Assembly (NCBI GenBank): GCA_018238155.1
Contig: JABCTZ010000006.1
Coordinates: 72,837 to 136,836 of the forward strand
Source: Candidatus Heimdallarchaeota archaeon
Lineage (GTDB): Archaea; Asgardarchaeota; Heimdallarchaeia; JABLTI01
Length of the DNA: 64,000 nucleotides
Direction: 5' to 3'
Part shown: piece after piece, positions 24,168 through 29,705 of the stretch
Numbering within the stretch: position 1 is the stretch's first letter
Layout of the letters: each line of letters begins with the position of its first letter
Program-made: the position numbers and the translations under genes
The notes under the pieces: model-generated
The model's input: the letters and a program-made list of their open reading frames with translations, nothing else
What the model was told of the DNA's origin: nothing
Database searches by the model: none

Positions 24168-27100
24168 ATGAAACAAATCAAATTTAAATTATCTTTTACA
24201 AAAAAAGCTGTTCTTGTATTAGTCGTAATGTTATTTAGTTTAGTTTTTACTGGTTTTACATTTAATCCACAACTAATAAGTGCACATTCACCAATAGCTT
24301 ATCCTGCTGAAATATTTTCTATTTGGAATAATACATCCCCAACTCTTGATGGAAGTATAGATTTCAACCCTCAAAACACATCTAAGGAATGGGCTTATGC
24401 TGCTGTTTATGATTTATATGATGAAAATACCACTGTTAGTGGTAAATTGTTCTTACAAAATGATAATGAAAGTTTCTTCATTGGATTAGATGTAATTTCA
24501 TTTGAAACAGAAGATCCAGTAACAGATTGGGGTATGACTATTTATTTTGATGTTGATCATAATGGGTTCCTTTCAGATAGTGATAAATCAATCTACTTTG
24601 TATCAAATTCATCTGATGATTTTGTAATTTATCGTGATTATTCTATTTCAGAGCACGGTTGGACTGTCATTGAAAGTAATAATCCTGAAACAAGTCTTCC
24701 AAGTGGTATCTATTTAGCAACTGATTTCTCTCAGTCTGCTTTTGAAAATGATACAGATCATAGGCAGTATGAGATTGAAGTACCTTTCACAACAATCTCA
24801 AGTGGTACTGGTAAAAGCTCAGGAATTGCTATTGAAGTAACAAACGATTTTGCAACAAATTCTGCAGGAATTACTTGGCCATTTATAGAAGATAATCTCT
24901 TCAACATCAGAACACAATCAAGTGTGTGGGGTGATATTTCTTTTGGTGAAAAAAACAGAAATAGTTTTGACTTTCTCATTGAGGATAATTTGAATGTTAA
25001 AGATTCAGCTATTGGCTACAATAATGGAACATACATAATCACAGCAGATATTGACGGAGACGGTGATTCTGAACTGATAGTTAGTTCTAATAGGTCCGTT
25101 TTAGGTGATAAAAATCTATTAGCAATATTCGATTACGTGAGTGGTGGTTATCAGAGGATCTGGTCTAGCTGGACAACGAGTCATCAAGATTTGATTGATT
25201 TTACAGTATTGGCGATGGCTGCATTTGATTTCGATGAAGATGGAAAAGATGAAATATTTGCAGTGGGGATTGATCGGTCTATTCTTAGATTTAATGATTG
25301 GAATAGCAGCAAAAGTGATTTTGAAACTAGTGAAGTCATTTTCGAACATTCTAATCCACTCATGGGTTATCTTGAAATTGGCGATGCTTCAAATGATTTT
25401 GAACCCGATTTGGTATTTGGTGATCAAAATGGTTATCTCAATATTTTAGAATATAGCAGTGGAACAGACACATTCAATCACGATTCACGATCCCCCTCTA
25501 GAACGAAAATAGATGGATCATATCCATATAGAATACATGAAATTGAATTGGGAAATATCGATTCAGATAATCAAATTGAAATACTTTTTAATTATCAATA
25601 CTCAGCTGATAACCAACTATCAGAAACGCTTCTATTGATCTATGAACGGTCTCCCGCAAAATATCTCGATAATCTTGATGACGATTTGCCGGCTATTTCC
25701 TCAGTTACTACTGCTGATTACTTTGGTCATACAATTATTGTAGCAGATGTAGATAATGATTCAGTTAATGAAACTATTATTGTAGGTAAAAACTATTTGA
25801 GAGTTTTTGAGCAAAACTCTTTTACTGATTCTTCTCCACCACTGGAATTTTTGGTAAATGATGAAACAACAGAACCATTAATGGCTGGCGGTGCAACTGT
25901 TGGAGACATTAATAATGATGGAATAAATGAGCTGATATTTGGTGCTAACAATGGTACTCTCTATATTGGTCGCGTAGTAGATAATGGAACAGCATTAAGT
26001 TTTCATTTGAATTGGTCTGCGGACTTAGGAAGCAGCTTAGGGTACCATGGTTCAATGCTCGTTGAGGATTTCGATGGAGATGGAATAAATGAGCTTGCCG
26101 TAGGTGATAATTCCGGTCAAATTTTTATTATTGGTAAAGGAGATGCACCTGAACTAACTATTACAAATCCAAGTTCTGGCTATGTTTCTTCACAAGATCA
26201 TATCCTTGTTACTTGGGATGCTTCGGATGATCATCAAGCATTGCACTACGTTGATATTTATGTTAATGGTATTTTCACAAATAGACTTGGTGGAGCACAA
26301 ACAGGGACAATTGTTTACCTGTCTCCCGGTCAAAATAGTATTGAAGTTGATGCCAATGATTTCTCAGGATTAAATACAAGTAAAATCATAACTGTGAAAT
26401 TTAATGTGAAAGCACCACAAGTAACAATTACAACTCCTACAAACTATTTCGAAACATCTCTTAGTTATGTTGACATAACCTACTATAATACTGATCCAGA
26501 TGGGGACTTTGATCACTATAAAATATTTCTCAATGGTGATGAAATAGAAAATGATACTATCGATGAATCTTATCGTTTAGATTTATCTTCTAGTGGTGAA
26601 GGGGAAATGAATATTACCATTGTAGCTATTGATGATACTTTACTTGAAGGTCGAGCATCATTATTTATCATCAGAGATATTTCTGCTCCAAATTTAACGA
26701 TTTCATCACCTAGTGATGGTGCAGCAATTAAGACCTCAGAGCTAGAATTTACTTGGACAGCTAATGATACACATACTGATGTTGAATATTTTGATATCAA
26801 AGTTGATGGAGTGCTTTATGATACTACAACAGATTATTCAGCAACCATAAATTTTGGAATAGATAAAGAATTTCTTGTTGAAATTATTGCCTATGATTCA
26901 CTAGGACATAGTGTTACTAGTTCAGTTACAATAACTCGAGATCTGGTTTCTCCAACTGTTTCTTTTGATCCTATAGGTTTGCCAAAGCTAATAGATGGAA
27001 CTTTTTATACTAATAATCCAAATCTCTTTCTTTCATGGAATGCTACGGATAATGAATTTGGTTCTGGAATTATTTCAAGTAGAATAACAATTAATGGTCT

Positions 27101-29705: not shown

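Follow-up and report, generated by a model that had tools for sequence, protein, structure and literature searches.

A Heimdall-type Asgard protein with an FG-GAP propeller ectodomain and a predicted longin-fold domain directly behind its membrane helix

The window analyzed here is a 64-kb stretch of DNA with a G+C content of ~32%, which we assign to a Heimdall-type Asgard archaeon because the closest protein relatives of the gene under study carry Candidatus Heimdallarchaeota labels. The gene is one unbroken open reading frame (ORF) of 1845 codons at positions 24168-29705 of the forward strand, and its nearest database relatives are proteins from Candidatus Heimdallarchaeota metagenome-assembled genomes that are annotated as 'VCBS repeat-containing' or 'hypothetical'. 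The host assembly comprises 4.08 Mb in 46 contigs, with a completeness of 90.7%. In predicted models, the tail that follows the single transmembrane (TM) helix of the encoded protein has the structure that defines a longin domain while belonging to no curated sequence family. We lean toward the reading that the protein acts at the surface as an adhesin or receptor, and that its longin domain, pinned to the membrane, and its helical bundle make up a docking platform for a cytoplasmic partner.

Fold and position of the cytoplasmic tail

The tail was modeled with AlphaFold on 31 family sequences, and the model has a mean predicted local distance difference test score (pLDDT) of 83. Tail residues 8-140 follow a beta-beta-alpha-beta-beta-beta-alpha-alpha order, mostly at pLDDT 85-97, and DSSP assigns strands to residues 12-19, 24-29, 65-69, 72-78 and 82-88 and helices to residues 38-56 and 93-109, with further helices to 136. 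The predicted five-stranded sheet lies between helix 1 and helices 2/3, which is the longin topology. Comparison with known structures using VIA gave Z-scores of 11.9 for VAMP7 (119 amino acids, 3.1 Å), 11.7 for the CPLANE longin, 10.9 for Sec22, 10.4-10.8 for TRAPP subunits, 10.3-10.6 for AP sigma and 10.7 for the Lokiarchaeota Roadblock-Longin protein 8yqg; AP, COPI and SRX longins are also among the structural matches. The Foldseek top 50 consists of longin or roadblock proteins throughout. MglB and roadblock structures match at a Z-score of about 10 over the core only (residues 7-115), and we regard the domain as longin-type and not roadblock-type because it has the extra C-terminal helices. 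An earlier note on this DNA had recognized a longin-like domain at about 28860-29260 and had proposed AlphaFold and Foldseek as a check; the modeled fold lies at 28845-29261, and its matches are longin and roadblock proteins only. A tail of some other fold, which the note had named as grounds for refutation, is thus not what the model shows. The order of domains given in the note holds as a whole, and of its listed features only the DOMON label lacks confirmation.

This likeness appears at the level of predicted structure. A Pfam search with residues 1540-1845 at E-values up to 10 recovered nothing except a chance-level SCIN match, a search of PDB sequences with a tail profile recovered designed helical bundles only, for the C-terminal part, and the tail does not belong to the Longin, Sybindin, Sedlin or Robl_LC7 Pfam families by sequence profile. 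A tail that senses a small molecule or lipid as a member of the GAF/PAS/profilin-like fold group, and does not dock proteins as a longin, would be in keeping with the structural relatedness of the longin, GAF and PAS folds (PMC4917890) and with the placement of the domain against the membrane. However, the high-ranking structures are all longin or roadblock, with zero GAF or PAS structures in the top 50 of either search, and we consider a sensor very improbable.

Hydropathy identifies a sole true TM segment at residues 1535-1557, in agreement with the single TM helix of the earlier note. We also weighed a second TM segment at the hydrophobic residues 1568-1589 but rejected it, since these residues model as longin strands 1-2 with pLDDT 91-94. 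There are no K or R residues in the 19 residues that precede the TM helix, while R1558 and K1568 follow it; the sequence after the helix reads RQPLSNIGWQKE and runs on into the 287-residue folded tail. The ectodomain contains 224 D+E residues compared to 63 K+R residues, is 26% N+S+T, and has zero cysteine. It also carries 35 N-x-S/T sequons, compared to 21.3 ± 4.1 in shuffled sequences (p about 0.0015), whereas the E/K-rich tail has 2. Charge, composition and glycosylation sequons agree with one another and support an ectodomain outside and a tail in the cytoplasm. The earlier note had named a tail outside the cell as an outcome that would speak against its proposal, and the positive-inside flanks, the sequon-rich acidic ectodomain and the E/K-rich tail point inside instead. 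On the reading that we favor, the product is a type I protein that would sit, glycosylated, on the surface of its Heimdall-type host.

The longin-fold domain starts 2 residues past the end of the TM helix and, because it begins so close to the helix, would be pinned flat on the inner face of the membrane, with a flexible linker and a four-helix bundle beyond it. The linker is just 3-23% identical among more distant relatives. The bundle accounts for the helical tail that had been noticed previously. The Tar ligand-binding domain, the talin rod, MIT and ArnB were examined as relatives of the bundle and set aside, with Z-scores of about 9.5-10.6 that fall below the meaningful level for helical bundles. 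A homodimer prediction for the longin domain scored 0.11 against a mark of 0.42, and we counted it neither for nor against. The features of the protein are collected in Table 1.

Table 1. Features of the 1845-residue protein and their positions in the window
Feature	Residues	Position	Strand	Basis
Whole gene, 1845 amino acids + stop, type I membrane protein	1-1845	24168..29705	+	ORF list, translation
Signal peptide: basic n-region, hydrophobic core 12-34, ISA/HS cleavage-like site	1-38	24168..24281	+	Hydropathy
N-terminal beta-sandwich, about 11 predicted strands	~75-262	24390..24953	+	AlphaFold model, pLDDT 50-90
Seven-bladed FG-GAP beta-propeller	265-660	24960..26147	+	Pfam, motifs, AlphaFold model
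Stalk, about nine Ig-like repeats (Big_7, Glucodextran_B, Big_13 type)	660-1520	26145..28727	+	Pfam, AP-x-[ILV]-x-I repeat starts
Thr/Pro-rich short membrane-proximal stalk	1521-1534	28728..28769	+	Read from sequence
Single TM helix	1535-1557	28770..28838	+	Hydropathy peak 2.59
Juxtamembrane cytoplasmic longin-fold domain	1560-1698	28845..29261	+	AlphaFold, VIA, Foldseek
Disordered variable linker	1699-1733	29262..29366	+	pLDDT below 50 at tail residues 144-173
C-terminal four-helix bundle	1734-1845	29367..29702	+	AlphaFold pLDDT 90-98, tail residues 187-287

Distribution of the full architecture and of the longin module

Searching the tail against 1.84 billion database representatives returned only 44 clusters, mostly of 1500-1875-amino-acid proteins in which the tail is C-terminal, and FG-GAP and Big domains are combined in 5/5 of the tail-matching proteins scanned. 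The earlier note had suggested a survey of the architecture across Asgard genomes. Our survey covered 400 genomes of the phylum and found the full form in one Heimdall-type family: the complete tail is present at E-values of 1e-55 to 1e-103 in 11/11 other genomes of the host's family, with 2-5 copies each, and none was found outside that family. Full-length relatives that are 46-77% identical occur in four other genomes of the host genus, and the host genome itself encodes four large paralogs that are ~36% identical end to end, 3/4 of which possess the four-helix bundle. Since every one of these family genomes keeps its several full-tail copies and the four paralogs align over their full length, we conclude that the full architecture is selected for and is not accidental.

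Conservation is uneven along the protein. Identity is highest in the propeller (57-80%) and the longin domain (53-78%), lower in the stalk (43-76%), and lowest in the linker (12-74%). In the closest species, the receptor copy is 77% identical, compared to about 90% for the flanking housekeeping genes, and divergence that is faster than that of flanking housekeeping genes is typical of surface proteins.

Several relatives depart from the full form. A short-stalked fifth member, 893 amino acids long and also encoded in the host genome (G000:C29:74475-77156, +), combines a signal peptide and FG-GAP repeats with a TM segment (residues 558-576) and matches the longin profile more weakly. Two paralogs lie tail to tail (G000:C7:100667-104623, +, and C7:105045-110567, -), one with the longin domain and four-helix bundle and the other with the longin domain only; the longin-only partner has a shorter N-terminus, at 1318 amino acids, and its called ORF is without a signal peptide. 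At least four more genomes of the genus have the same convergent arrangement, and the two proteins may function as a pair. Upstream of the paralog on contig C44, and divergent from it, are two tandem genes for 1420-amino-acid FG-GAP-rich proteins (G000:C44:4149-13136, -) that are 83% identical to one another and are without the longin tail.

The longin module alone has a much wider range. Outside the host family, it was detected in 195/400 genomes at E-values of 1e-11 to 1e-22. We defined a juxtamembrane longin family from sequence alignments as those proteins in which the module lies within ~25 amino acids after a TM segment and carries a signature with the columns W / G / L-x-S/G-G / FE-x-x-Y / F, all of which are present in the 1845-residue protein. 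The end of a TM segment falls <25 amino acids before the module in 38/40 evaluable database relatives, and <30 amino acids before it in 26/31 ORFs from 26 distant Asgard loci. Members recovered by profile search bear Promethearchaeota, Loki-, Hod-, Hermod-, Hel-, Odin- and Heimdallarchaeota labels, and the longin part is annotated in none of them. Kinship of the module at the sequence level spans the Loki-, Hod-, Hermod-, Hel-, Odin- and Heimdall-labeled proteins. By shape, an ESM Atlas search ranks Asgard hypothetical proteins first, with root-mean-square deviations (rmsd) of 1.6-2.8 Å over 133-141 residues.

The membrane parts ahead of the module are diverse: single-pass proteins with 300-1500-amino-acid ectodomains; proteins with beta-helix/NosD ectodomains; proteins of ~375-400 amino acids with 4-7 TM segments; and proteins of ~550 amino acids with 9-11 TM segments that resemble the major facilitator superfamily (MFS). 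One member, P0122, is an 'MFS transporter' of the cultured Promethearchaeum syntrophicum. Genes of the MFS type are often in tandem, and at L023:1503-5001, L036:281-3781 and L037:3212-6710 there are tandem pairs of ~550-amino-acid MFS-type proteins that end in the juxtamembrane longin module; such proteins are possible transporter-receptors. We therefore describe the module as a cassette with a longin fold, placed next to the membrane and reused behind many membrane proteins, with the FG-GAP/Ig version as a lineage-specific form. What sets the Heimdall-type family apart is that its head is an FG-GAP propeller and its C-terminus a four-helix bundle.

The ectodomain and its resemblance to integrins

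The ectodomain begins with the signal peptide that had been proposed previously, visible as a hydrophobic N-terminal segment at residues 12-34 followed by ISA/HS. Conservation in the family sets in exactly at A38/H39, past the leader, and identity in the leader itself falls to 16-21% in more distant relatives. For the next domain, which the earlier note called DOMON-like, the AlphaFold model predicts a beta-sandwich at residues ~79-259, but the DOMON label is unconfirmed: the DOMON and CBM9 Pfam models match none of 18 family members, and the ESM Atlas feature leads (0.86-0.87 for CBM9_1, with CBM9_1/EB_dh clusters at 0.78-0.87) are all below the 0.9 mark. Fold searches with this domain and the propeller together were filled by propeller matches.

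The FG-GAP/VCBS motifs that had been read at about 25030-26140 were found again. D-x-D-x-D-G-x-x-E-type motifs that resemble calcium loops occur at residues 294, 354, 527, 580 and 634, and all five starts (nucleotides 25047, 25227, 25746, 25905 and 26067) fall inside that range. Pfam matches for this region have E-values of 6e-10 (FG-GAP) and 2e-9 (FG-GAP_3), both models match in 18/18 family members, and AlphaFold models the region as a complete propeller with seven blades. Foldseek E-values for the propeller are 1e-9 to 1e-8. VIA superpositions span 296-343 aligned residues, with Z-scores of 30.2 for LGI1 EPTP and BBS2, 29.1 for ITFG2, 28.1 for aldos-2-ulose dehydratase, which is among the top matches, and 25.7-27.5 for integrin alpha heads. 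The run of Ig-like repeats reported at about 26145-28720 likewise stands: Pfam matches are to Big_7 (5e-16, 4 stretches), Glucodextran_B and Big_13, and about nine repeats of ~90 amino acids start at residues 660, 749, 840, 928, 1026, 1117, 1211, ~1305 and 1403. The calcium-loop propeller and small beta-sandwich would thus be held off the membrane by a stalk of ~nine Ig-like domains, a layout that suggests an adhesin or a ligand-capturing receptor.

The earlier note had described the ectodomain as integrin-alpha-like, and the comparison bears this out only loosely. Integrin alpha chains (such as alphaIIb, alpha5, alpha6 and alphaM) are likewise type I proteins with a membrane-distal seven-bladed FG-GAP propeller, beta-sandwich legs and one TM helix, and the predicted Asgard propeller shares with them the seven blades and the hairpins of calcium-loop type. 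Over 330-343 aligned residues, however, the integrin heads and the Asgard propeller are 14-16% identical, and ITFG2, an FG-GAP protein, and BBS2 and LGI1 EPTP, which are not FG-GAP proteins, match at least as well as integrins do. The Asgard protein adds an N-terminal beta-sandwich, and nine bacterial-type Ig repeats replace the thigh, calf-1 and calf-2 domains, with no Integrin_alpha2 or calf Pfam match. In place of a short peptide tail with a GFFKR motif there is a folded tail of ~290 residues. Integrin beta (PF00362) has no match in the 90.7%-complete genome, although this model matched no control genome either. FG-GAP/VCBS surface proteins are common among prokaryotes. The integrin resemblance is thus one of domain class, and the protein is not a member of the integrin family.

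Several matches raise the question of whether the head acts on a polysaccharide, with the tail serving only for placement or turnover. A lambda-carrageenase propeller model matches 8/18 family members (best E-value 6e-11), the C-terminal domain of the RGL11 lyase matches 2/18, and the propeller match to aldos-2-ulose dehydratase, the Glucodextran_B-type domains and the sub-threshold CBM9 lead for the N-terminal domain point the same way. These similarities are at the level of fold or weak profile, though, and no catalytic motif was identified; moreover, a conserved two-domain cytoplasmic tail of 290 amino acids would be unusual for an exo-enzyme. We therefore judge a glycan-binding or glycan-processing protein to be unlikely.

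Candidate partners of the tail and the genomic neighborhood

The longin/roadblock fold is a protein-docking platform, usually for small GTPases or for a second longin or roadblock domain (SNARE longins, TRAPP, Mon1-Ccz1, SRX/SR-beta, Ragulator, MglB), and members of this fold class act as guanine nucleotide exchange factor, GTPase-activating protein or anchor platforms for Rab, Rag, Arf, SR-beta and MglA. The Asgard domain has the same bb-a-bbb-a-a fold (b, strand; a, helix) as the eukaryotic longins VAMP7, Sec22b and Ykt6, the TRAPP subunits Bet5, Trs23 and sedlin, SRX, Mon1-Ccz1, CPLANE, and the AP/COPI sigma, zeta and mu longins. Superpositions with the eukaryotic longins cover ~120-130 residues (Z-scores of 9.5-11.9, rmsd ~3 Å), with no detectable sequence relationship. 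Eukaryotic longins act at the cytoplasmic face of membranes, like the predicted position of the Asgard tail. The order of parts differs: longin SNAREs have an N-terminal longin domain and a C-terminal anchor, whereas the Asgard protein runs from ectodomain to TM helix to longin domain, N-out and C-in, and its tail is without a SNARE motif. The soluble Asgard proteins 8yqg, 9jue (MK-D1 Roadblock3) and 7f8m (Thorarchaeota Roadblock) have the same fold and come from the same phylum (Z-scores of 10.1-10.8); structurally solved Asgard roadblock/longin proteins are soluble or fused to a GTPase, whereas the Heimdall-type longin family sits directly behind a TM helix. As functional models for the tail, we would point to Ragulator/Rag, with its LAMTOR1-anchored roadblock dimers, and to MglB-MglA, which are membrane-tethered or polar platforms that position GTPases. 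The tether of Ragulator is a lipidated subunit while that of the Asgard protein is a transmembrane receptor, to which GTPase binding would extend by analogy only.

Because the module recurs behind unrelated membrane parts (MFS-type, beta-helix/NosD and 4-7-TM), we favor an output or docking role for it. In the reading toward which we lean, the tail would link the protein at the surface with a partner in the cytoplasm, or would bring that partner to sites where the ectodomain is engaged; we infer that the head binds a ligand, that the tail has a partner and that the protein may signal. By analogy with the fold class, the leading partner candidates would be a small GTPase or another longin/roadblock protein, and such candidates are plentiful in the host genome, which contains 40-52 Ras-like GTPase ORFs and 9 Roadblock genes.

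A number of observations weigh against docking of this kind. The fold of the tail is assigned from predicted models, and no sequence profile in the Pfam and PDB searches ties the domain to the curated longin or roadblock families. In the host genome, the Ras-like ORF nearest to an FG-GAP-longin gene is at least 13 kb distant, neither a GTPase or Roadblock gene nor any other conserved gene for a cytoplasmic protein stands beside the gene or its paralogs, and the gene neighborhoods of the paralogs and of related genomes yield no partner for the tail. At 24 single-pass TM-longin loci of other Asgard lineages, a GTPase gene is directly adjacent in 3/24 (0.7-1 expected) and within about 3.5 kb in 4/24 (1.4-2.2 expected), where the expectation is a rough one from a GTPase density of 1 per 50-80 kb. 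Finally, a search for sequencing runs that would document expression of the gene listed neither a run nor an RNA holder.

These same data bear on a more specific proposal, namely that contact at the propeller alters the longin platform, which recruits or regulates a small GTPase that has no lipid anchor, and that this GTPase then drives cytoskeletal or membrane remodeling. The fold class is known as a GTPase platform and those families dominate the structure matches, the genome is rich in Ras-like ORFs, and in three distant Asgard genomes (loci L025:2209-7452, L028:2221-5879 and L049:101-4065) a single-pass TM-longin gene does adjoin a GTPase gene: one is Rab-like and starts 13 bp downstream, one is Gtr1/RagA-like and precedes the longin gene in the same orientation, and one is Rab-like and convergent. 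On the other hand, 15 further single-pass relatives of ~770 amino acids have no adjacent GTPase, one of them having a GTPase gene 1.7 kb away, and no such adjacency is seen in the FG-GAP-longin family or the host genome. The enrichment overall is marginal and not clearly above chance; it is suggestive at most, and we set it aside as evidence for the FG-GAP-longin family. In addition, no catalytic or binding residues can be named in the tail. Coupling to GTPases or membrane remodeling, which the earlier note had put forward, was thus backed by no test, and we hold a GTPase-coupled receptor to be a doubtful, if possible, form of the protein.

The longins might instead pair with one another, as homodimers or among the 4-5 paralogs, and order a non-crystalline envelope with no GTPase or signaling involved. 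Longin and roadblock domains are classic dimerization units, and dimerizing MglB, LC7 and 8yqg (a 'dimeric structure') are among the structural matches. Each genome also has several paralogs, at least five genomes of the genus share the convergent pair with and without the bundle, and the gene neighborhoods show no tie to GTPases. Against self-association as the whole explanation, the same type of longin also occurs in proteins that do not scaffold an envelope, namely MFS-type transporters and small polytopic proteins, and dimerization is compatible with docking of a partner, since most GTPase platforms are dimeric. We regard pure self-association as the main, if tentative, alternative to the docking platform that we favor.

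Asgard genomes encode dozens of small GTPases and longin/roadblock proteins. One could imagine an Asgard-wide form of transmembrane wiring in which longins on receptors and transporters recruit GTPases without lipid anchors, or roadblock/longin regulators, to membrane sites. We consider such a general principle rather unlikely. If it were true, the FG-GAP version would be a prokaryotic counterpart of integrin-style outside-in adhesion signaling, and tethered longin platforms such as SR-alpha/SR-beta, Ragulator and the longin SNAREs might descend from such a state. More immediately, the 287-residue soluble tail offers an expressible handle for asking what eukaryote-like modules bind, and because receptors and MFS transporters have this juxtamembrane longin in common, many 'hypothetical proteins' could become a class open to testing. 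The same handle would allow one to ask, in the archaea nearest to eukaryotes, whether contact at the cell surface is coupled to machinery inside the cell.

According to works that cite it, Liu et al. 2021 reportedly described 'integrin repeats' in two Asgard phyla. In the literature on Asgard integrin, FG-GAP or transmembrane longin proteins, we found no description of this architecture and no paper that describes an Asgard transmembrane protein with a cytoplasmic longin domain. The text of a report on Asgard roadblock/longin structures (PMC10933270) is without the terms 'transmembrane', 'membrane-spanning' or 'membrane protein', and Wuichet and Sogaard-Andersen 2014 (PMC4316618) make no mention of longin and use 'transmembrane' only for the CvnA histidine kinase. 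Cultured Loki-type Asgard cells have no ordered S-layer and bear complex surface proteins of unknown identity (PMC9834061), in keeping with the surface role that we favor.

The immediate neighbors of the gene include three upstream genes (20951-21871, -; 21972-22973, +; 22967-23953, +) that encode proteins of ~306-333 amino acids with no Pfam match. All three proteins start with a signal or anchor, continue with a sequon-rich body and close with a C-terminal TM segment and a short basic tail, and the receptor therefore lies in a small cluster of surface-protein genes. The two forward-strand genes are paralogs (31% identical) that overlap by 7 nucleotides, and both are kept beside the receptor in the closest species at 66-72% identity. 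On the other side, 110 nucleotides beyond the receptor stop codon, is an ORF for a 99-amino-acid HEAT-repeat-like protein (29815-30114, -). A homolog that is 43-50% identical adjoins a related receptor in another genome of the genus (L029:7144-7521), but the link is weak because the ORF is absent from the closest, syntenic species. No neighbor is common to the four paralogs, and only the closest species is syntenic among four related genomes. The upstream pair of 330-amino-acid proteins and the HEAT-like ORF were rejected as conserved partners, since their linkage is inconsistent. A downstream ORF of ~396 amino acids that is conserved in one Loki-type genus was also rejected, as it encodes a polytopic membrane protein with no homolog in the host genome.

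Elsewhere in the host genome, a 337-amino-acid protein (G000:C11:62743-63756, -) has an N-terminal longin-like domain followed by four TM segments; 309 bp from its gene is a Ras-like GTPase ORF of 427 amino acids, and two Roadblock genes follow at a distance of about 2-3 kb. Within the window, an archaeal 23S rRNA gene (61201-64000, +) is truncated at the window end and has a G+C content of 0.40-0.50, compared to ~0.32 elsewhere. A 1461-amino-acid fusion protein (10966-15351, +) joins two BcrAD_BadFG activase domains to DUF2229 and an HGD-D-like part, and a split, three-gene version of the same activase/DUF2229/HGD-D-like set is found at 32981-36367 (-), near DegV and PlsY-like genes.

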